Positions 44,890 through 59,674 of a DNA stretch of 64,000 nt are shown one piece after another (within the stretch, counting starts at the first letter, position 1; each line of letters starts with the position of its first letter). The position numbers and the translations under genes were made by a program. The stretch comes from Candidatus Thorarchaeota archaeon (GTDB lineage Archaea; Asgardarchaeota; Thorarchaeia; Thorarchaeales; Thorarchaeaceae). Below the pieces are notes generated by a model, which was given only the letters and a program-made list of their open reading frames with translations, had not been told where the DNA came from and searched no databases. The stretch spans positions 32,001 through 96,000 of the forward strand of contig JAGSHN010000025.1 in assembly GCA_029855935.1 (NCBI GenBank). Direction: 5' to 3'.

Positions 44890-47280
44890 TCACTCACTCA
44901 GGCATCTCCGTATTCTCTGACTCTGCACGACCTCCCTCACAGCATCACGCACATCGGAACGCGTGGCGACCGACTCAATCGTGTCAGCCGTGTCGGACCC
45001 GTCCTTAGCATATGAGGACAGTAGCTGGTGCAGTCTATCATCATCCGAGAGATAGAGCTCATAGACCAAGGCATCAGCAAGATCATCTAGCGCTCCGAAT
45101 GTTTTCGATGACACAACAGCTTGATCCGCCACTCGGGCCAGTCTGTGCAAGGCACGACCGATCAGGCTGTAGACCTTAGGGTTGGGTGGTGTGGCGACCG
45201 GCAGATCCTCCATCATTCCCGTGTTCAGACAGGTGGTGAGCTGGGAGCGATTGGTCAGGAACTGCACGCACACGTTCCTTATCAATCGAGAGTTGAGAAT
45301 GACCGCAAGGCCATAGGCATCGAGCGGCAGTCCGCTATGTCTGACTCTCACAAGGCCTCCGCCGTGAATCATCCCCTGCGGTTTCACGACACATCGAGGA
45401 TAGGGCAGATTCTTGGTCGCAACTAGGAACTCGTTCTCAAACGACACCCTCAGCAGGCGGTCATCGTGGAACGACCAGTCAGTGTAGTTGAGGTGACTGT
45501 TGTTGAACACATAGCGCCCACTGCTCCTGCCGGTGGAAGCATATGGCACGGGAAACTCGTCCGATTGTCTCACCGATACATGACGGCGGGGGATGTCGCG
45601 GCCACGGCTTGCACTGAGCACTCCGGTTCTTCCAGCGGAGAGAATGCGCTCAAAGACATCGTCGGCATATATCACCATCACGTTGCCTCTGAAGAGCAAG
45701 TCACGACTAACGGTGGCGACACGCCGAACTCCAGGACGCCGCGACAATACTCGAACTGAGGACGGCCTCTCGGAAGGAACGGCGCTGGCGTAGAGCGTCA
45801 CCACCTCAAGGGTCACCCCATCAAAGAGAGCACCCTCGTCGGTTATTTGCCACAGGGTGAGATGGTCTCTCACAAAATGGCGCGTCTTAGCGAACTGTCG
45901 GGTTCTCAGAAGACTGTTGGGCAGTAGCAGGCCCAGTTGTCCTGAGCTGTTGAGCAGCATCTTCGACCGAAGAATGAACAGCGATGCACTGTTCCACGTC
46001 CCGGTCCGCCCGCCACTGACTGACCATGGATACTCTGTGCTGATGTACTCACGTTCGCAGCGGCTCGTGACATTCCCATATGGAGGATTCGAGATCACAA
46101 CGTCAAAGCCCGGGTCAGAACGATTCATCACGTGAGGAAAGGTACGCGGCCAGTCGAGAGGCCTGCTCATCGCATCCGCCGATGCCTGCTCCTCGTGGGA
46201 ATGAACGTGCCGTCCGACAAGCGAGTTACCGACAGCGAGGTTCACAGGTAGGTGACGAGGAAGAGGGCCTTGAGTGTGGCTCAGCGCCCAGAGACGCAAC
46301 CGTACTGTTGAGCATCTCACTGCTGACTCATGTATGTCGACTCCATAGAGGTTCCGGCGGAGTATGGTCACTGGAAGCGATCCATCCATCTCCTCTGTGG
46401 ACCTCGATAGAAGGGAGAGGAGCCAGCTAGCAGCCGCCTCCAGAAAGACTCCTCCACCCAAGGCTGGGTCGAGCACGGTCACCGAGGCCAGGAGCTCCGT
46501 CTGAGCTGTGCGGGGGACCGGCCGAGGGGGCCACAAGGAGGGGGGCTCCTCACCGGTAAGTGTGTGATCAGGGGCCGTAGCGCCAATAGCGATGTTGGCC
46601 CAACGTGAGAGCACCGTTGCCGATATCTCGCGAGCGATGGCCTCAGGAGTGTAGAAGGTCCCTGTCGAACGGTTATGCGATCTCCACCTTCTCGCGACAA
46701 CGCGGAGCGCATTGGACACATCGCTCCCGACCACGGACGCCGCGGACAGAACAGGCAGATACGTCTCGTGCAGGACCTGAAACGGCGAGAGCGACAGGGA
46801 CCACCGTGGCGCAGAACACAGCACATCTCGCACCGTGCGAACAAAGTCGGAGATCACGTGTCGAGAGAGATGGACTGGTCCGGTTGGCTGAGGAATACCC
46901 TCGTAGACGATGCCGATGAGCTCACACGGAGAGAGGCCGTATTGTGCGCTGTCAACAAGGTCTGAGCCTGTACCGTACAGCGCGTCGAGAATCTCATCGG
47001 CGGAGAATGGGCCCATCTCGATCTCCTGAAGTAAGTGATACTGGCCCTCCGAGCCCGTGTGGCCCGCCGATTCTAGAAGGCCTGCGCCTATTGAATACAG
47101 TAAGACGAAGAGCCTCTCAGCAATATCGTGGGCCACGACGATGCTGTCGCCAATTGGGAGCGAATCACCCAGTGCCGTGACAATGCGAAGTCGTGCACGG
47201 CTCAGGCTGTGCCCAACAGCGGATGATGGCCGTGCACGGGAATACAATGAACTCTCTGCACACGACCTCACCACGCGCAT
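44890..47280 (-). CDS. N6-adenine DNA methyltransferase (Eco57I/TaqI-like); start uncertain
   Basis: GTFYTP, VLDPALGGGVFL, LYGVDI, GNSL, FDVVISNPPY, ILNSRL in a TaqI_C-like region. Confidence 0.85.
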   Translation of the reverse strand: MRVVRSCAESSLYSRARPSSAVGHSLSRARLRIVTALGDSLPIGDSIVVAHDIAERLFVLLYSIGAGLLESAGHTGSEGQYHLLQEIEMGPFSADEILDALYGTGSDLVDSAQYGLSPCELIGIVYEGIPQPTGPVHLSRHVISDFVRTVRDVLCSAPRWSLSLSPFQVLHETYLPVLSAASVVGSDVSNALRVVARRWRSHNRSTGTFYTPEAIAREISATVLSRWANIAIGATAPDHTLTGEEPPSLWPPRPVPRTAQTELLASVTVLDPALGGGVFLEAAASWLLSLLSRSTEEMDGSLPVTILRRNLYGVDIHESAVRCSTVRLRLWALSHTQGPLPRHLPVNLAVGNSLVGRHVHSHEEQASADAMSRPLDWPRTFPHVMNRSDPGFDVVISNPPYGNVTSRCEREYISTEYPWSVSGGRTGTWNSASLFILRSKMLLNSSGQLGLLLPNSLLRTRQFAKTRHFVRDHLTLWQITDEGALFDGVTLEVVTLYASAVPSERPSSVRVLSRRPGVRRVATVSRDLLFRGNVMVIYADDVFERILSAGRTGVLSASRGRDIPRRHVSVRQSDEFPVPYASTGRSSGRYVFNNSHLNYTDWSFHDDRLLRVSFENEFLVATKNLPYPRCVVKPQGMIHGGGLVRVRHSGLPLDAYGLAVILNSRLIRNVCVQFLTNRSQLTTCLNTGMMEDLPVATPPNPKVYSLIGRALHRLARVADQAVVSSKTFGALDDLADALVYELYLSDDDRLHQLLSSYAKDGSDTADTIESVATRSDVRDAVREVVQSQRIRRCLSE

Positions 47281-52037: not shown

Positions 52038-52853
52038 TCAGGACACATCGAACACCGACAATAGTTCTCGCCCCAGCTCTCTTCGCGGGAGCACTATTGA
52101 AGAGATTCTGTCAAGAGCAGATGCGAGATGCTCGGCCGCGTCAATCTGGCGCTCACTGTGACTTACGTCTCCCATCCCGTCAGTGGCAGACGAAGACTCA
52201 GATTCCGAGAGCTGTGTCAGGCGTATGGCCTGAGCGAACGATCTGCCAAATGGCCGCATTTGCTGTGCAAGAGGCAGGGCCCACCCTGCGACAAGTGCGC
52301 CGCTCACGGCACACGAGCCAGCGAATGCCAAGATTCCGCTCTCGTTGTGTCCCCCATACGGAAAGACAGAGTCATTGTCCGTTGTCGCATCACAAGCCTC
52401 CCCTCTGGCGCCTGCCCTGACGAGATGTCTCAGACCCTCACCCAGCAGCACAAGTCCGACAGGGGATCTCAGTCTACCCATTATACGTGTGGCCTCAGAG
52501 AGCATCAGGTCCCCGGCTAGGATGACAAGGCTGGTCAGGTCTCCGTCAGAGGGCATTGATTGCTCCTCGGCCATTCTGTGTAGATCCACGGCAGTCCTCA
52601 CCAGCAGGGCCGTCGTTCCCACGTCTAGGCAGTGCTCATCAGCGCCGCCAGCTAGTTCACACGAGAATAGAGCAACAATCGAGGACGGCTCTACAGGTCG
52701 GATCGTGAGAAAGTCCCGGGCCACTCCATAGAGACCCGTACCGAGGTGCCCACTGGTCTCAAGCAGTGAGAGAGCGTGCTGTGAGATCGCCCGAGAGCGG
52801 GTACGTAGAATCGAGATGTTCAATCGAACGTCTTGGCGGGGCCGCAATTCCAA
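52038..52853 (-). CDS. Degenerate polyprenyl diphosphate synthase-like protein (no DDxxD)
   Basis: Keeps IRP, VILAGDLMLSEA and FGRSFAQAIRL, but the Asp-rich motifs are replaced (LHRMAEE, RLTQLSE). Confidence 0.6.
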   Translation of the reverse strand: MELRPRQDVRLNISILRTRSRAISQHALSLLETSGHLGTGLYGVARDFLTIRPVEPSSIVALFSCELAGGADEHCLDVGTTALLVRTAVDLHRMAEEQSMPSDGDLTSLVILAGDLMLSEATRIMGRLRSPVGLVLLGEGLRHLVRAGARGEACDATTDNDSVFPYGGHNESGILAFAGSCAVSGALVAGWALPLAQQMRPFGRSFAQAIRLTQLSESESSSATDGMGDVSHSERQIDAAEHLASALDRISSIVLPRRELGRELLSVFDVS

Positions 52854-53078
52854 TCATTCACCACTCCGAGAGGGCTATGGCCTGCACCTAACGAGGTCAA
52901 GCAAGACCTAGAATGATGCGGCCATTCTAGCGTCGTAGAAACACAGGCGCTCATAAGTGCAATCTTTTGACATCGTAAGCGGGTTACTGATAGATTACTC
53001 AATGATTTCTAAAGGAGAACCGAAATATGGTGTGGCAGCGTCCGGTACAGAGGACTATGGTCACGGGGATTGTGAACA

Positions 53079-53765
53079 ATGGAGAAGATACTCAAGAGAA
53101 TGGCCGTTCTGGCAGCCATCGCAGGAGTCCTGGGAGTCATAAGTGCATATGGGAGCACGTGCCCGACTCTCAGTCCGCCGACCGATCCGACGAGCAAGCT
53201 GTACATCATGTATACGCTCAATTGGGTCTTCCTGATAACGACGTCACTGACGTGGGCCGTGGGCTTCGCGTGGTTTCTCTTGTTGTGGGGACTGATGACA
53301 CGGAGGAGCTGGTCATACATGGCCAGCGTTCTCGTGAGCGCCGTGGGCGCAGCCAGTGGTTTCATACCTGCAGCTCTTGTAATGGCGAACGGTATGCCAT
53401 TCAGTCCGTCGTTGATGAGGGCCTTCCTCAACCTGTTCATTCTCATCTACCTGCTACGGCCATCCGCTGCTGGTGAGATGAAGACGGCCCTCTCCCTTGA
53501 GGCCCCGGGCACCGGAATCAGTGCAGACGTTGTCACATACATACTGGTGGCCGTTGGCATCCTGCTGATGCTGCAGCCAATTGTCGTACCGTGGACACAC
53601 GTCATCGACGGGAGATATGAGTACGGCTATGAGGCACTGCAGTTCTTTGCAGGCCTGTTCTCTCTCATGCTCGGTGGGTCAATCCGAATCTCCGAGAGAA
53701 TGAGACTTGCACAGCTCCAAGCCTCGGCGGCTGTGGAGCAGCAAACAGAGGTCAGACCTGAATAG
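53079..53765 (+). CDS. Hypothetical membrane protein (about 6 TM)
   Basis: Hydrophobic segments; GSTC motif. Confidence 0.75.
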   Translation: MEKILKRMAVLAAIAGVLGVISAYGSTCPTLSPPTDPTSKLYIMYTLNWVFLITTSLTWAVGFAWFLLLWGLMTRRSWSYMASVLVSAVGAASGFIPAALVMANGMPFSPSLMRAFLNLFILIYLLRPSAAGEMKTALSLEAPGTGISADVVTYILVAVGILLMLQPIVVPWTHVIDGRYEYGYEALQFFAGLFSLMLGGSIRISERMRLAQLQASAAVEQQTEVRPE

Positions 53766-53800
53766 ACAGGCGGTCGAGACCTTGTGGGCTCTGTCTCGAC

Positions 53801-54322
53801 TCAGGCCTCGACATCTCTTCCCGTCGCGGAGCCGTTCTGACCAGACGGACCGTACTCCAACATAGACTCAAGCTTGTCTATGTCAATCATGCCAATCCCG
53901 TTGTGGACACACGTGAAGGACTTGCACAGTTTCTGATCTATGTCACCCCACTTTATGCCCCAGCCCTTGAGAACACCGAGGATGACCTTGAGATCGCGTC
54001 CCTTCTCTGTAAGAGAATACCGAACTCTGATGGGCATTGTGTCAGGTTCCACGACACGTGCCACCACGCCCTCTCGCTCCAGCAGGCTGAGAGACTCGGA
54101 GAGCACCCGGGCCGAGATCTGTTCACCTGTCACATCAACGACACGTCGCAACAGGTCGCTGAAATAGAGCTCTTCCGCGACTACGAGCTCACATAGTATC
54201 CACGGGACCCATTTGCGACCAAGAATCTTCAGGGCCCGCAGGACGGCGCATCTGTCCCTATCTTCTCGACCCAGCTTCAAGATCCTCCATTCAGCTACGC
54301 GCAAGTTAACAGCTCGGCGCAC
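53801..54322 (-). CDS. HxlR (MarR/DUF24) family transcriptional regulator
   Basis: CAVLRALKILGRKW, ISARVLSESL..LE, P.RVRYSLTEKG, WG; additional C-terminal CxxxxC-x-H. Confidence 0.92.
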   Translation of the reverse strand: MRRAVNLRVAEWRILKLGREDRDRCAVLRALKILGRKWVPWILCELVVAEELYFSDLLRRVVDVTGEQISARVLSESLSLLEREGVVARVVEPDTMPIRVRYSLTEKGRDLKVILGVLKGWGIKWGDIDQKLCKSFTCVHNGIGMIDIDKLESMLEYGPSGQNGSATGRDVEA

Positions 54323-54470
54323 CTGTATTTTACGGTTGTGCTGCGTAATCTACTGATGGCAACAGAATCAGGTTACATCGATGAAATGACCTTACGTTTC
54401 CTTCAGCAAATGCTTTAGTATTGCCGAAACACCACTCACAGCACGTGACAATGTGAGGAGAGATGTACTG

Positions 54471-55112
54471 ATGGATCTGGTTTCACTCGTCTTGCTACTC
54501 ATCACCGGAATCATCGCTCTGGTGATGACGATCTTCCTGTTCAAGGACTATGCGGCGAACAAGAAGCTCTACCATATGTGGTGGGGCCTCAGCTCGCTCA
54601 TCCTGTTCTTGGCTGGCGTGCTAATTGTCGCCTTCGACTTTGCCGTACTGGGCAATCCGGCAATACCCATCGTGGCCACATTCATCCCGGTCGGACTGGC
54701 CATCGGTTTGCTATACGCCGTATGGGATGACAAGCCCTATGGACTGTACTACACTATCTACGGCATTCTGATGGTGATCATCCAGATTGTGGCGAGGTAT
54801 GTACCAATCGAGAGCGTAGCCACGCCGTCGCTCCTCGCCGCACACATACCTAGCGGCCTCATTATCGTCCTTGTCCCGCTGATGACGACAATCCGCAAGG
54901 AAACAGAGGCGAGCGCGATACTCTTCAGTCTTGGGGGTATCGCAATCTCACTGGGAGGAATGCTCCTGGCTGCCCTCAAGTTCGACGCTCCTATACTCCC
55001 AGCGGCGACGATCTTCGCTGTCTTGCCCCTTCTCCTGCTGATAGTGAGCGTGCTGTTCTTCCTCGGAATATTCCTCCCCACCAAGTGGAAGGCAGGCCTT
55101 CCGGTCGGATAG
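54471..55112 (+). CDS. About 7-TM membrane protein with two His residues
   Basis: Highly hydrophobic; YHMWW and AAHIPSG. Confidence 0.78.
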   Translation: MDLVSLVLLLITGIIALVMTIFLFKDYAANKKLYHMWWGLSSLILFLAGVLIVAFDFAVLGNPAIPIVATFIPVGLAIGLLYAVWDDKPYGLYYTIYGILMVIIQIVARYVPIESVATPSLLAAHIPSGLIIVLVPLMTTIRKETEASAILFSLGGIAISLGGMLLAALKFDAPILPAATIFAVLPLLLLIVSVLFFLGIFLPTKWKAGLPVG

Positions 55113-55201
55113 TCTCAGGAACAGGTTCAGTATCGTGACACGGGGCGCAACACGAGGAGCGTCACTGCTCCTCCGCCCCCTCTTTGTCATTCTGACGAGC
55201 G

Positions 55202-55219
55202 AGTTATCTACAGGTAACT
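55202..55219. promoter_or_regulatory. Palindromic candidate HxlR operator
   Basis: AGTTATCTACAGGTAACT upstream of TTTTAA; related boxes at 52982-52999 and 54371-54388. Confidence 0.5.
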
Positions 55220-55286
55220 TGCTATCCACTTCTAAACTCACGTGCTTTTAAGCAGGAATTCCACTCGGCACTAGGGTGGTTGCTGA

Positions 55287-56717
55287 ATGACTGAAGAGAG
55301 TACTGCCGAAGGCCCTACCAGCAAGTTTCAGCAGTTTGTCACTTGGCTTGGAAGCTACAGGGGACTCATCACTGCCACAATTGTGTATGAGTTCCTGATC
55401 GTCGTCTTTCTCACGACGTTCTCCGAGCCAGTCACTCAGATGCTGGGACAGCCTCTCATTCCAATTACTCTGGAAGATAGCCACAGGATAGCCAGAATCA
55501 TCATGGTCTATCACTCCCTCGGGATAGTGTTCCTCGGGGCAGTGGTACTCTTTGCTCTCGACCTCTTTGACGTGAGGCCCAAGTTCGAGCCACTGGTCAA
55601 GTGGTCGATCATCCCTGGCTACGTTCTCACCTCAGTCTCAGGGATGACCTTCGCATATCTTCTGCCTGAGAACTGGATTGCACACGCACTGTTCATCGTG
55701 GGACTCACTCTCGTATTCATCAGTGGAGTGCTTCTGTTGATGGGAACGTGGCCAACGAAGAACTTCCCCGAGAAGCAGCCAGAGGGACCCTACCTGTTCG
55801 GAGTCAACTGGGCCCAATGGGCAGTTGCGTTGGTCGTGATTGCCCTGCTGATATCGGCAATGCTGGGAGCAGGTGTCGGCGCCTACTTTGGCAACGGATT
55901 CAAAGCCATTCTCGCCGAGGACTTTCTCCGAGTGGAGGACAAGGACCTCTTTGTGCGTGCCGTTGTTGGCCACCTGCACATCATGCTCGCACTCATCGAT
56001 GCAGCAGTGATGCTCATCGTGTTCAGGTACACCAACCCCGAACAGCGAGGGAAGTGGTACCTTGCCGGGATGATCCTCTCGATCCCCGGAACACTGATCA
56101 TCTCAATTGGCGCGTGGCTCGTCCCCGTCGGCTATGAGAAGGCGCACATGGTGATCAATGTCGGCGCAGTCTTCGCTCTGCTTGCGGCATTCATACTGGC
56201 AATCTGGGGGTGGAAAAAGACTGTCAGAGACGTGCTCGGGGAGGAATACGAGAGCGCCGGCATAGGTCGACGTATTATCGCACTGTTCAAAGATCCCGTG
56301 AAGTTTGGTCTCTACTTCCAGTTCATCTGGGTGAACATTGTTGTCACAGCTCCCGGAATCTATGTTGCCATCAATCTTGAGCACTTCAGAACAGAGATTG
56401 GTGCTGATGTCGAGCGGGCGTTTGCCGTCGGACACTGGCACGTCCTTGGCGTTCTGACTGCTGTGATTGCTCTTCTGCTTGCCTTCGACTACCTTGACGT
56501 CGGCGGTTGGACCAGACAGATTGTCGGGTGGTCGCTGACGCTGGGGAGTATCATAGGTTTCGGCTTTGCCAACGCGTACATGCTTGAGGAGATTGGTATC
56601 GCCACTGGCTTTGCATTCTCGATGATAGATGTCGGTATCATCCTCCTTGTAATCGGCATTGCAGTCTTCTGTATCTATATGCTGGTGCAGATACTGAAGG
56701 GCAGAGCGGTGAAGTAG
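55287..56717 (+). CDS. 12-TM His-rich membrane protein with a heme-copper oxidase subunit I-like layout
   Basis: His in TM2 (YHS), TM4 (IAHA), TM6 (GHLH), TM8 (KAHM) and TM10 (GHWH); 3 bp upstream of heme O synthase. Confidence 0.7.
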   Translation: MTEESTAEGPTSKFQQFVTWLGSYRGLITATIVYEFLIVVFLTTFSEPVTQMLGQPLIPITLEDSHRIARIIMVYHSLGIVFLGAVVLFALDLFDVRPKFEPLVKWSIIPGYVLTSVSGMTFAYLLPENWIAHALFIVGLTLVFISGVLLLMGTWPTKNFPEKQPEGPYLFGVNWAQWAVALVVIALLISAMLGAGVGAYFGNGFKAILAEDFLRVEDKDLFVRAVVGHLHIMLALIDAAVMLIVFRYTNPEQRGKWYLAGMILSIPGTLIISIGAWLVPVGYEKAHMVINVGAVFALLAAFILAIWGWKKTVRDVLGEEYESAGIGRRIIALFKDPVKFGLYFQFIWVNIVVTAPGIYVAINLEHFRTEIGADVERAFAVGHWHVLGVLTAVIALLLAFDYLDVGGWTRQIVGWSLTLGSIIGFGFANAYMLEEIGIATGFAFSMIDVGIILLVIGIAVFCIYMLVQILKGRAVK

Positions 56718-56720
56718 ACA

Positions 56721-57689
56721 GTGGAGATCGGGATTGGCGACGCAGACCAGCTGGAGGGCGGGGACAACAACTCCTCGTCCTCCTTTATCTCACTCCTGGG
56801 CGAACTCATCAAGAGCAAGCAGACAGCCCTCCTGGTCTACACCACAGTGTTCACGTACCTCTTTAGCAGCTGGAATATGGGCATTGACTTCGGCTTTGCC
56901 CTGCTCCTCATTGCCAGCCTTGTACTGGCGGTCTCGGGTTCCACTCTGCTGAATATGTACATCGACAGGGACATCGACGCGGTGATGATTCGGACCAAGA
57001 ACCGGCCTATACCGAGTGGCAAGGTCTCTCCAACGTCGGTGGTGGTGAACGGCGCTGTGATGGTCGGGCTGGGCCTAGTCCTCAGCTGGTTATTCATCAA
57101 CCCCGTGACAACCGCTGTCATTGCAGCTGGATTCGTACTTGATGTTGTGGTCTACTCGGTGTGGCTAAAGCGCAAGACCCCAACATCGATCCTCTTTGGC
57201 GGCATTGCAGGGGGGATGCCTGCTCTTGCTGGCCGGACGGCTGTTGTCGGTCAGGTTGACCTAGTCGGCGTGCTTCTCGCGCTCTTCGTGATAGCGTGGA
57301 TACCACTGCACATCCTCACTCTGGCGATGCTGCCAGAGAACCTTGAGGGCTACCGCCGCGCAGGAGTCCCAATGTGGCCAGTCGTCAGGGGAACGGGTGA
57401 GACGATGATCATCGTGACTCTCTCGGCCATTCTCAGTGCTGTCGTCGTAGTGATGACCGGAGTTGTTCTGAACCTTCACTGGTTGGCTCTGCTCCCGCTG
57501 CTCCTGTTGAGCGCAGCCATAGTCATTAGGGCGGCCGAGAACCTGCGCGCCCCCGACCAAGACAAGACCTTCTGGATCTTCAAGGCGGCATCGGGGTACA
57601 TGGCCTTCGCCTTTCTCTGGCTCTTTATCGGCGTTGTCTTGACACAGGCCATCGGAGACGGCTCCTTGGTACTACAACTACCATTCTAA
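56721..57689 (+). CDS. cyoE: Heme O synthase (protoheme IX prenyltransferase, CyoE/CtaB)
   Basis: NMYIDRDIDAVMIRTKNRPIPSG, YSVWLKRKT, GGIAGGMP.L.G, WIPLH, YRRAGVPM.P. Confidence 0.93.
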   Translation: MEIGIGDADQLEGGDNNSSSSFISLLGELIKSKQTALLVYTTVFTYLFSSWNMGIDFGFALLLIASLVLAVSGSTLLNMYIDRDIDAVMIRTKNRPIPSGKVSPTSVVVNGAVMVGLGLVLSWLFINPVTTAVIAAGFVLDVVVYSVWLKRKTPTSILFGGIAGGMPALAGRTAVVGQVDLVGVLLALFVIAWIPLHILTLAMLPENLEGYRRAGVPMWPVVRGTGETMIIVTLSAILSAVVVVMTGVVLNLHWLALLPLLLLSAAIVIRAAENLRAPDQDKTFWIFKAASGYMAFAFLWLFIGVVLTQAIGDGSLVLQLPF

Positions 57690-57806: not shown

Positions 57807-59015
57807 TCACCATAGCTGGTACTCGCGCTTGACGAAGCCCTTCCAGACATGTGGAAGCGTCTCGACGACCTCGGCGGCGATGCTCTCAATTGAGCTTCGT
57901 ACGGCATTGAGGTCCACGTTTCCGAAGACCTCGATATTCAGCGCCTTCGGTTCGGTGATTGGAGCCCCAATCTGACTGACGATATAGCAGTAGACCTGCT
58001 CGATGTCCGGATACTCCTTTGTGATCCTTGTGACTATCTCGCGGGCCGCGACATTGTAGGTCTTTCCGACGTGGGAGACCGGATTCTTCCCAGCCGCAGC
58101 CTCAAGCGTCATCGGCCTGTATGGAGTGATGAGACCATTGGCCCTGTTGCCGCGTCCGACCTGGCCATCATCTCCGTGCTCGGCAGAGGTGCCAGTGACA
58201 GTCAGATAGAACAGGCCCTGCTCTGGGTCGTCGGCCGTGTTGACATCCACCTCGACGGGAATGTCCGTCTTCTTTGCAGCAAGATCAAGCAGCATGTTCC
58301 TGATGGCGTCCATCACGTTGGCGTACTCGTCAGCGTCGCGGGTCTCGGTGGAGATTATGGCGGTTGCAACCTGCAGATGTATATGGTCCCCAACACGGGT
58401 GCCCATCACCTTGATGTCCTCACCAATCTGGGGCCACTTTCTCTTTGTCGCGGGGTCGTTGAGCAGCTGTTCTGACTCAAGTACAATCTGTTCCGTCGGT
58501 GACAGAGGGGCGTATGCAACGCCGAAGCTGGTGTCGTTCGCGCGCGGTACTTCGACCTCGGCATCGAAATTGCCCACAAGGTCCGTGCTGCCAGCTCGAA
58601 TCTTGTAGTCGATGATGATGTCTGAGTTGACATCAAGATGCGGTAGGTCCTCGCTGAGCCACTCTCTCGTGTGCTCGACCGCGAACTTTCCAACGGGCAC
58701 CTGTCGGCTGTAGTCCTTGCCGACAACGTCGACGGCACGTCCGCTGAGGAGCAGGTAGATGGGCTCGATGACATCACCGCCACCGAACCGAGCATTCGAC
58801 TGACCACCGACGAGGAGCACCTTGTCAACATTATGGTGCTGGACTCGTCCAAAGGTCTCAAGATAGTATTCGCTGAGTCGGACTGACAGCTCCTCCGCTG
58901 CTTTGTCGCAGAGAGTGTCGGGGTGGCCCTTCCCCTTGCGTTCTACGATCTCGACCTTTCTCTTGGCCACAGGGAGGCCGTCTCCTCGTGTGACTTCAAT
59001 CTTCATTTTCATCAA
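57807..59015 (-). CDS. mat: Archaeal S-adenosylmethionine synthetase
   Basis: [52 protein letters not shown]. Confidence 0.96.
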
Positions 59016-59062
59016 CTCTAGTGCCGCGGCTGTGCGCAGCGCTTATATACCTTTCTCCCCCC

Positions 59063-59092
59063 ATTACTCTCAGTAATTAATAACGGCGTTAC
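59063..59092. promoter_or_regulatory. Twin palindromes between divergent mat and the HTH-CBS regulator
   Basis: ATTACT-CTC-AGTAAT (59063-59077) and ATAAC-GGC-GTTAC (59080-59092). Confidence 0.6.
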
Positions 59093-59134
59093 AAATACCC
59101 ACCAGTAAGAAACGTCAGAGAAAGGTGACGCGGC

Positions 59135-59674
59135 ATGAGGGTGCTCCCAGAGACCATTACACGAATGCGGAAACGAAGAGGAATGACTCAGGCCGAGCTG
59201 GCACGGGCCGTAGGAGTGTCGCAGGCATACATTGCCAGGCTTGAGAACGGCACACTTGATCCCAAGCTGTCCGTCGTCAATAGAATACTCGACGTCCTTG
59301 AGGGATCAACACTGACGTGTGCCGACGTGATGAGCACCAACCTCGTTGTTGCCGATGCTCGCGACTCCGCACTGGAGGTCGTCCGCGACATGCTGAGGAA
59401 TGGGTTCTCTCAGATCCCGGTATTGCGCGCGGGAAAGATTGTGGGGATGGTCACCGAGAGGGACGTGGTGCGGAACATAACACGTGACCTCGAGCAGATG
59501 TCGGTGCAGGCAATAATGGAGACGGTGAGCCCTCCGCTGGTCGACGAGCGGACAAAGATAGAGGAGGTCATCGCGCTGCTAGACACCTTTCAGGCAGTGC
59601 TCGTCCATCGCGGTGGCAGACTCGTTGGCATAGTTGCAAGGTCAGACATAATGCGAGCGCTGGCGCTGGACTGA
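59135..59674 (+). CDS. XRE-HTH transcriptional regulator with C-terminal CBS pair (COG3620-like)
   Basis: MTQAELARAVGVSQAYIARLENG..DP HTH; FSQIPV and LVGIVARSD CBS motifs. Confidence 0.92.
   Translation: MRVLPETITRMRKRRGMTQAELARAVGVSQAYIARLENGTLDPKLSVVNRILDVLEGSTLTCADVMSTNLVVADARDSALEVVRDMLRNGFSQIPVLRAGKIVGMVTERDVVRNITRDLEQMSVQAIMETVSPPLVDERTKIEEVIALLDTFQAVLVHRGGRLVGIVARSDIMRALALD

Follow-up and report, generated by a model that had tools for sequence, protein, structure and literature searches.

What does a heme O synthase serve in an archaeon in which no canonical oxidase is recognized? The question is raised by a gene cluster at positions 52038-57689 of a 64-kb stretch (64,000 nt, hereafter the window) of contig JAGSHN010000025.1 from a Candidatus Thorarchaeota archaeon, a label that the closest homologues of the cluster genes also bear. 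A sequence-only reading of this DNA had listed six contiguous open reading frames (ORFs), all of which are present where it placed them, and had proposed that heme O is made here for a non-canonical membrane cytochrome complex. Pfam and NCBIfam models recognize two of the six, an HxlR regulator and a UbiA-family enzyme, the predicted heme O synthase. Our analysis points at the gene next door as the oxidase-like partner of the synthase, because its product, a 476-aa protein with 12 transmembrane (TM) helices, has the predicted fold of heme-copper oxidase (HCO) subunit I, with His residues at the heme-ligand positions. The earlier proposal gains from the absence of a canonical oxidase and from the conservation of the gene pair; it is corrected in that the 12-TM partner itself appears oxidase-like.

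Heme O synthase and its conserved neighbor

The synthase gene (56721-57689, forward strand) starts with GTG, 3 nt downstream of the 12-TM stop codon. Its product passes the heme O synthase model TIGR01473 narrowly, at 214.2 bits against a cut-off of 210.3, with all other UbiA models scoring at most 64 bits. It contains the motif N78-M-x2-D-x-D-I-D-x2-M-x-R-T-x2-R-P together with W193 and H197, and we take N-x3-D-x3-D-x2-M-x-R-T-x2-R-P plus the W..H helix motif to be the canonical heme O synthase signature; N78, D82, D84, D86, M89, R91, T92, R95, W193, and H197 are each kept in at least 90% of 44 homologues linked to a 12-TM gene. In a quick LG+G4 tree of 71 sequences, with few canonical members, the protein falls among the heme O synthases and apart from the other UbiA proteins used as outgroups (SH-aLRT 98). 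All 44 linked synthases form one clade with eight others (SH-aLRT 99), apart from synthases adjacent to COX1 genes, and this clade divides into an Asgard (SH-aLRT 100) and a bacterial subclade (99). Seven of these eight come from genomes that encode the 12-TM protein, and the eighth (G099) has no match at E 1e-10. Profile, motifs, and tree thus predict heme O synthase activity for the UbiA gene product and assign it to a module-specific clade. Two observations stand beside this result. One chromosome (G003/G264, Heimdallarchaeota-labelled, without COX1) has three module-type synthase paralogues within 25 kb, at about 1572000-1597100 (L088, L092, L095). In addition, an Asgard family (f20, genus g40; G047, G064, G071, G077, G100) carries a distinct synthase clade and no COX1, with no 12-TM match in four of its genomes and a weak one (77 bits) in G047, which hints at another divergent partner.

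The host genome is a metagenome-assembled genome (MAG) of 2.97 Mb in 32 contigs, with an estimated completeness of 97.3%. Neither COX1, COX2, CtaA, Sco, nor cytochrome bd was found in it, so that the lack of oxidase subunit II, CtaA, and Sco genes described for the window holds for the whole genome, and the search for a canonical oxidase suggested by the sequence-only reading returned none that would explain the synthase. HemB, HemC, cytochrome c maturation, and FGE were likewise not found in the genome, nor was any ORF with more than two CxxCH motifs, and neither MqnA/D nor cytochrome b was detected in the host and its genus.

A presence/absence survey of 301 Asgard genomes places the pair in a wider context. 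The 12-TM protein is found in 51 genomes, COX1 over its cut-off in 22, HemB in 18, and heme O synthase (E < 1e-40) in 62, 49 of which also carry the 12-TM protein. Of the 51 carriers, all but two (49) have a heme O synthase, while COX1 is missing from 37 and HemB from 44. Because the 12-TM protein accompanies the synthase in 49 of 62 genomes while COX1 occurs in 22, annotation pipelines would miss the likely heme O client in most Asgard genomes. Three single-chromosome assemblies labelled Heimdallarchaeota contain the 12-TM/synthase pair and no COX1. In the taxonomic family of the host the 12-TM protein is rare (three of 76 other genomes). Bacterial carriers also encode canonical HCO-family genes in four of five cases, and genomes with both systems keep two synthases, a separate one for the canonical oxidase. 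In a further Asgard family (f22), COX1 occurs in 10 of 21 genomes and HemB (ALAD) in one of 21; with HemB this rare even in oxidase-bearing Asgard archaea, these organisms look like heme auxotrophs or use an unrecognised route.

Gene neighborhoods were compared in 80 loci from species-representative genomes, out of at least 585 matching stretches (L001 denotes the locus of the nearest relative; L002, L003, L009, L014, and L015 are further Asgard loci). The 12-TM and heme O synthase genes lie next to each other in about 48 of the 80 loci, in Asgard archaea, Chloroflexota, Aminicenantes, and Bacillota. Asgard loci have the synthase directly 3' of the 12-TM gene; many bacteria have it there or one gene further on, the intervening gene encoding an exported lipoprotein with an FGE-sulfatase fold but without the Cys pair after RGGS. 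In a Symbiobacterium MAG (L066, 2048-4594), 12-TM protein, a 13th helix, and FGE-fold domain are joined in a natural fusion of 848 aa. Proteins of 777-858 aa (P0126, P0183, P0221), matched over their 12-TM part in a representative search, may be similar fusions. Bacterial operons open with a Crp/Fnr-type regulator, whereas the Asgard module has the HxlR protein instead. As the 12-TM protein, the synthase, and two smaller membrane proteins of 219 and 228 aa recur in both Archaea and Bacteria, four genes are conserved across the two domains. The genes therefore do co-occur elsewhere, as the check proposed with the sequence-only reading required: the pair is adjacent in most Asgard and many bacterial loci, and the two accessory genes recur. 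Of the six-gene system originally envisaged these four genes stand, and the 271-aa gene at its left end, confined to L001 outside the window, does not.

Other genes occur beside the module in particular Asgard lineages. A major facilitator superfamily (MFS) transporter of about 408 aa is encoded directly 3' of the synthase in L008, L011, L013, and L019, whereas L010 and L078 have it upstream of the module; this transporter may import or export a compound for the module, and none is present in this window. In several Asgard loci (L002, 926-5943; L011, 3376-4893) the module abuts CcmF-like and CcmE-like genes and the gene of a 505-aa multiheme cytochrome c, a possible electron-donor or heme-handling link that is absent from the host genome.

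Predicted fold and histidine pattern of the 12-TM protein

The 12-TM protein is encoded at 55287-56717 on the forward strand and forms the core of the module. No Pfam or NCBIfam model matches it, and about 200 word-sharing homologues from Asgard archaea, Anaerolineae, and other bacteria are all annotated as "hypothetical" and are all without Pfam domains; bacterial relatives include members from Symbiobacterium and Thermoactinomyces. AlphaFold2, run on an alignment of 40 members, returned a model with 12 long helices (pLDDT 90.8, pTM 0.91). With this model Foldseek retrieved HCO subunit I from the Protein Data Bank (PDB) as all of its top 50 matches (bo3, ba3, aa3, cbb3, and the quinol-dependent nitric oxide reductase qNOR), with a best E of 1.4e-4 and TM-scores of 0.46-0.59. 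An exhaustive structure search with VIA likewise gave catalytic subunits of HCOs or nitric oxide reductases (NORs) as its top ten, at Z 15.6-21.3 and with 380-417 residues aligned each, the next fold following at Z 10.6. The highest scores belong to cbb3 (3mk7_A, Z 21.3, 394 residues aligned at 4.0 Å) and cytochrome c-dependent NOR (cNOR; 4xyd_A, Z 20.8), followed by bo3 (1fft_A, Z 19.3), ba3 (Z 17.8), and qNOR (Z 15.6-16.1). The match spans all 12 helices, and the model has the 12-TM core built of three four-helix units.

Searches in the ESM-Atlas gave a related picture. One of the three top feature matches (score 0.91) had been named automatically by UniProt as [quoted passage not shown]. 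By shape, the model is about as close to a cluster in which 33% of the members belong to PF05940 (NnrS; TM-score 0.67) as it is to a COX1 cluster (TM-score 0.69). Another cluster, unnamed and made up of 226 mostly thermoproteotal (Thermoproteota) proteins, has a TM-score of 0.78 to the 12-TM model and may be a further branch of the fold family. A sequence-profile search of the PDB returned only a chance-level match to an Mrp antiporter (E 0.0095).

The sequence itself also contains an internal three-fold repeat. Residues 172-325 align with 334-474 at a probability of 88% (P 3.5e-7), and 20-160 align with 334-474 (P 1.7e-5) and with 172-325 (P 1.4e-3); these P-values are optimistic, since they come from forced global alignments of membrane sequence. 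In the repeat register H76, H231, and H385 coincide, as do H133 and H287.

Seven His are invariant in the 40 aligned sequences (H76, H133, H229, H231, H287, H383, and H385), together with R70, Y75, Y124, E211, W277, R368, and E376. In the model H76 lies in the second helix (64-93) and H383-W-H385 in the tenth (373-402), and a helix-II His with a helix-X HxH is what we take to be the HCO arrangement of heme ligands, bis-His for the low-spin and single-His for the high-spin heme. Helix VI carries H229-L-H231, a single His (H287) opens helix VIII, and an extra invariant His lies in helix IV. In 14 remote members with 22-29% identity, exactly H76, H229, H383, and H385 remain invariant; H231 and H287 are retained together in 11 and lost together in three, and H133 is lost independently. 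We infer that H229 may be the counterpart of the helix-VI CuB ligand, with H231 and H287 forming a pair at one site. Positive-inside loop charges suggest an N-in topology, in which every invariant His would lie on the outer side of the membrane protein, as HCOs have them.

Taken together, fold and His positions make it fairly probable, by predicted structure, that the 12-TM protein is a deeply divergent, unannotated member of the HCO structural superfamily. The sequence-only reading had described a 12-TM multi-His protein; the abundance of His is confirmed, but the model has the fold of HCO subunit I with heme-ligand His in place.

Accessory proteins, regulator, and operator-like sites

Two further membrane proteins belong to the conserved core. 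The 219-aa protein (54453-55112, forward strand; the true start may be the ATG at 54471) is a partner conserved in Archaea and Bacteria, recurring in 31 of the 80 loci, and its AlphaFold2 model has seven helices (pLDDT 94.1) with a single invariant His, H131. The model gave only generic 7-TM matches resembling G-protein-coupled receptors or rhodopsins (Z 12-14; Foldseek E > 0.02), with no HCO subunit III among the matches listed, and the protein is therefore left without an assignment. Complex prediction for the 12-TM and 219-aa proteins scored 0.00 in both runs, the tool returning "no answer", a result that weighs neither way. The fourth conserved component, the 228-aa protein (53079-53765, forward strand), has about six TM helices and is found in 17 Asgard loci. 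It is homologous to a bacterial family of about 238 aa (f7) that closes the bacterial operons (hhalign probability 98.7%, E 1.7e-16, 194 columns), and the two groups share G25, C28, Y80, G90, P128, H174, G192, and G199 as joint invariants. C28 was rejected as a lipobox Cys, as the bacterial homologues keep it after a plain TM helix. The description of these two products as a 7-TM His protein and a 6-TM protein is thus borne out.

The outermost gene (52038-52853, reverse strand) encodes a soluble 271-aa protein and is peripheral to the conserved core. No Pfam model matches it even at E 10, and neither DDxxD motif is present. Its language-model features score 0.94-0.95 to clusters resembling polyprenyl-diphosphate synthases (PF00348 in 15-47% of the members) and 0.88 to heptaprenyl synthase component 1. 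It had been called a degenerate prenyltransferase: a degenerate prenyl enzyme is a fitting description, although it resembles prenyl-diphosphate synthases lacking their DDxxD motifs and not UbiA transferases. Among the 80 loci the gene occurs only in L001, at 29% identity, and was therefore dropped as a core component, being conserved nowhere beyond that locus.

The winged-helix regulator of the HxlR family (53801-54322, reverse strand) matches PF01638 at 61.1 bits against a cut-off of 20.8, and its gene lies beside the module in at least 14 Asgard loci. C25 and C133 are invariant in 15 orthologues, the C terminus has a C-x4-C-x-H motif that includes C138 and H140, and similarity to the redox regulators RrpB/RrpA is weak. 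Its sequence makes this protein a likely thiol-based sensor of oxidants or electrophiles for the cluster.

Palindromes that are candidate HxlR operators precede two of the transcription units. GTTACTGATAGATTAC (52983-52998) lies 81 nt upstream of the 228-aa gene, and a palindrome of the same type stands upstream of the orthologous gene in L009 and L014. GTTATCTACAGGTAAC (55203-55218) lies 69 nt before the 12-TM gene and precedes a TATA-like TTTTAAG, with the orthologous palindrome in L001 found 33 nt upstream of the 12-TM gene. In the divergent spacer between hxlR and the 219-aa gene, the weak, operator-like site GTAATCTACTGATGGC (54345-54360) matches one half only, and the pattern by which it was found carries little weight, as it was built from the sites themselves; at the same spacer L015, L002, and L003 have the full palindrome. 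Of the related palindromes announced before three transcription units, two are thus full copies and the third is a half match. The consensus GTWAY-N6-RTWAC occurs twice in the window against 0.13 expected, both times in cluster promoters, an enrichment that is only suggestive because the degenerate positions were fixed after the sites had been seen. The phylogenetic footprint is the stronger argument: the consensus stands at cluster promoters in seven Asgard loci (the window, L001, L002, L003, L009, L014, and L015). Some 1.2 Mb of loci, searched together with part of the window, gave 16 matches, eight of them at such promoters. Recurrence at orthologous promoters counts in favor of the sequence-only reading.

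The 3' neighbor of the cluster is an archaeal-type S-adenosylmethionine (SAM) synthetase gene. Since the flanking housekeeping and restriction-modification genes are unrelated to the module, the cluster is bounded. At 57807-59674 the SAM synthetase gene is divergent from an HTH-CBS regulator gene, and the two adjoin the module both in the window and in L001. Further away, at 44890-47280, a gene for a 796-aa Eco57I-type restriction-modification methylase stands amid housekeeping genes.

Candidate functions and relation to known systems

The reading we favor, and hold to be fairly likely, is that the module constitutes a redox enzyme of the HCO structural superfamily that binds heme O, has a non-canonical distal site, is induced by oxidants, and disposes of O2 or NO in a heme-scavenging anaerobe. 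In the scheme that follows, the binding of heme O, the nature of the metal site, the choice of substrate and electron donor, and the logic of regulation are our inferences. The co-translated synthase would farnesylate heme b, which the host must scavenge because it cannot make it. The 12-TM protein would hold a low-spin heme between H76 in helix II and H385 in helix X and a high-spin heme O under H383, and H229 with the co-varying H231 (helix VI) and H287 (start of helix VIII) would form a distal site in place of the CuB/Tyr center. The 7-TM protein (H131) and the 6-TM protein (C28, H174) may act as accessory or assembly subunits. The Cys-containing HxlR protein would bind the GTWAY-N6-RTWAC boxes before the three transcription units, allowing induction under oxidant or electrophile stress. 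The enzyme would reduce or otherwise remove O2 or NO at the membrane, for protection (aerotolerance or NO tolerance) and not for energy-conserving respiration.

Several results weigh against this reading. The COX1 profile (PF00115) gives no match to the 12-TM protein up to E 10. Comparison of the 40-member alignment with four canonical HCOs by hhalign yields a non-significant probability of 0.3%, the only local match pairing VGHWHV with the helix-X motif VGHFHL. A hidden Markov model (HMM) search of 1.84 billion representative proteins found 292 clusters only, none of them extending into COX1. Given the lack of a sequence-level link, homology to HCOs rests on predicted structure. The canonical CuB pattern, a helix-VI His together with two consecutive His in helix VII or in the loop between VII and VIII, is missing, and the protein contains no HH pair. 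Also missing is the cross-linked active-site Tyr: M233 occupies the His+4 position, and helices VI and VII have no invariant Tyr. A three-His site is uncertain, since the residues of an HxH on one helix face different sides. Neither a cupredoxin nor a cytochrome c subunit was found and, with cytochrome b, cytochrome c maturation, and MqnA/D absent as well, no electron donor is evident. Finally, in a host without HemB and HemC the enzyme would need imported heme, and no heme importer was identified.

Some of these points would suit a module for heme handling that captures exogenous heme, farnesylates it, and keeps or moves it in the membrane for storage, for delivery, or to detoxify free heme, with the 12-TM protein as a holder or chaperone without turnover. 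An invisible electron donor and the absence of HemB in the host and in 44 of 51 Asgard carriers, and of HemC in the host, would accord with such a role, and the MFS transporter 3' of the synthase in several Asgard loci and the CcmF/CcmE-like genes abutting the module in others would find a place. The full oxidase-like His set and its co-varying pair, however, exceed the needs of a carrier; bacterial carriers that make heme and own canonical oxidases nevertheless retain the module, and regulators of the oxidant type in Archaea and the Crp/Fnr type in Bacteria fit a response to gas or redox changes. We therefore regard heme handling as improbable.

It is also improbable that the 12-TM protein resembles NnrS in function, acting without catalysis as a sensor or protectant under NO or O2 stress that would bind heme, and perhaps a metal, but leave the gas unreduced. 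The near-equal Atlas scores of the partly NnrS cluster and the COX1 cluster (0.67 and 0.69), the stress-type regulators, and the missing active-site Tyr are in line with such a protein, and the former score makes a distant relationship to NnrS conceivable. Profile comparisons nevertheless speak against it, as PF05940 gives no match at E 10, hhalign against four NnrS-like proteins reaches 0.2%, and the HMM of the 12-TM alignment finds no match among NnrS-like ORFs. Moreover, no output domain or signalling partner is conserved beside the 12-TM gene, and a synthase dedicated to heme O usually goes with the active site of an oxidase; no linked heme O synthase is known for NnrS.

A different substrate for the UbiA enzyme, another aromatic or tetrapyrrole compound whose prenylated product the 12-TM protein would use or transport, is very unlikely. 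TIGR01473 is barely passed, many linked homologues score below its cut-off (195-210 bits), the host has no tetrapyrrole pathway, and a gene resembling prenyl-diphosphate synthases lies nearby. Yet the signature motifs of heme O synthases are in place without variation, other UbiA models stay at or below 64 bits, the clade nests in heme O synthases, and the partner protein has heme-ligand His. That the synthase serves a canonical oxidase encoded elsewhere, on the assembled contigs or in the missing 2.7% of the genome, and adjoins the 12-TM gene only incidentally, is conceivable for a 32-contig MAG but close to refuted by the absence of COX1, COX2, CtaA, Sco, and cytochrome bd from the 97.3%-complete genome, by the three single-chromosome assemblies that have the pair without COX1, by the 37 of 51 carriers lacking COX1, and by the second synthase kept wherever both systems occur.

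Returning to the HCO-type enzyme, the predicted fold and the accompanying heme O synthase suggest that the 12-TM protein is probably an unannotated heme enzyme handling O2 or NO. A bolder version, to which we give only a limited chance, regards the family as a relic-like sister of all HCOs that keeps the three-fold repeat behind the 12-helix oxidase core and that scavenges O2 or NO with heme O and without copper in heme-importing strict anaerobes. If O2 or NO reduction holds, an enzyme for gas detoxification has gone unrecognised in many "strict anaerobes" of the Asgard archaea, Anaerolineae, and Aminicenantes, and if the three-fold repeat is ancestral, it bears on the origin of the oxidase fold. 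The bolder version, if true, would explain the spread of heme O synthase through "anaerobic" Asgard lineages and would bring an enzyme that handles O2 or NO into the debate about oxygen tolerance when eukaryotes arose. Heme O synthase serves as a marker of aerobic capacity or oxygen in Asgard papers, which leave the 12-TM partner unnamed, and heme O biosynthesis has been reported in all Heimdallarchaeia lineages (Appler et al., 10.1101/2024.07.04.601786). With HemB absent from so many carriers, their dependence on heme exchange in sediments can be tested, and the module, being small (four genes) and available in bacterial versions, is directly testable by expression and spectroscopy.

In the part of the literature covered, no description of the 12-TM family was found. 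The divergent HCO families eNOR, sNOR, gNOR, nNOR, NOD, and a putative N2O reductase, as described in the main text of Murali et al. 2024 (PMC11214002), lack the active-site Tyr and have altered active-site ligands; their closest kin are the B family, qNOR, or cNOR, and NO, not O2, is their proposed substrate. The B-family-related eNOR, sNOR, gNOR, and nNOR keep CuA-type second subunits. That main text does not name the 12-TM family, and none of its HCO families corresponds to it. Our family is likewise Tyr-less with altered ligands, but the COX1 profile is blind to it and it has no CuA-type subunit. NnrS (PF05940) is similar in having 12 TM helices, many His, and stress-type regulation, and differs in the lack of profile similarity; it is a heme- and copper-containing NO-stress protein.

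The closest structural relatives are CcoN (cbb3, 3mk7) and NorB (cNOR, 4xyd), which match over all 12 helices (382-394 residues, about 4 Å) and share with the 12-TM protein the helix-II His, the helix-X HxH, and the absence of a helix-VI Tyr at His+4. Unlike in CcoN and NorB, to which there is no detectable sequence similarity, a helix-VI HxH and one helix-VIII His replace the H + HH set, an extra His lies in helix IV, and the three-fold repeat is detectable in the sequence. The 12-TM protein furthermore has no cytochrome c partner of the CcoO/NorC type and comes with its own heme O synthase, whereas cbb3 and cNOR use heme b. From the bo3 system the module differs by the lack of CyoA, CyoC, CyoD, and the CuB/Tyr motif, by the absence of evidence for a quinol site, and by a host genus without futalosine-pathway MqnA/D. 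CyoB (6wti, 1fft) is nevertheless the top Foldseek match (E 1.4e-4; VIA Z 19.3), and in both CyoB/CyoE and the module described here an oxidase-fold subunit is paired with a heme O synthase in one operon.

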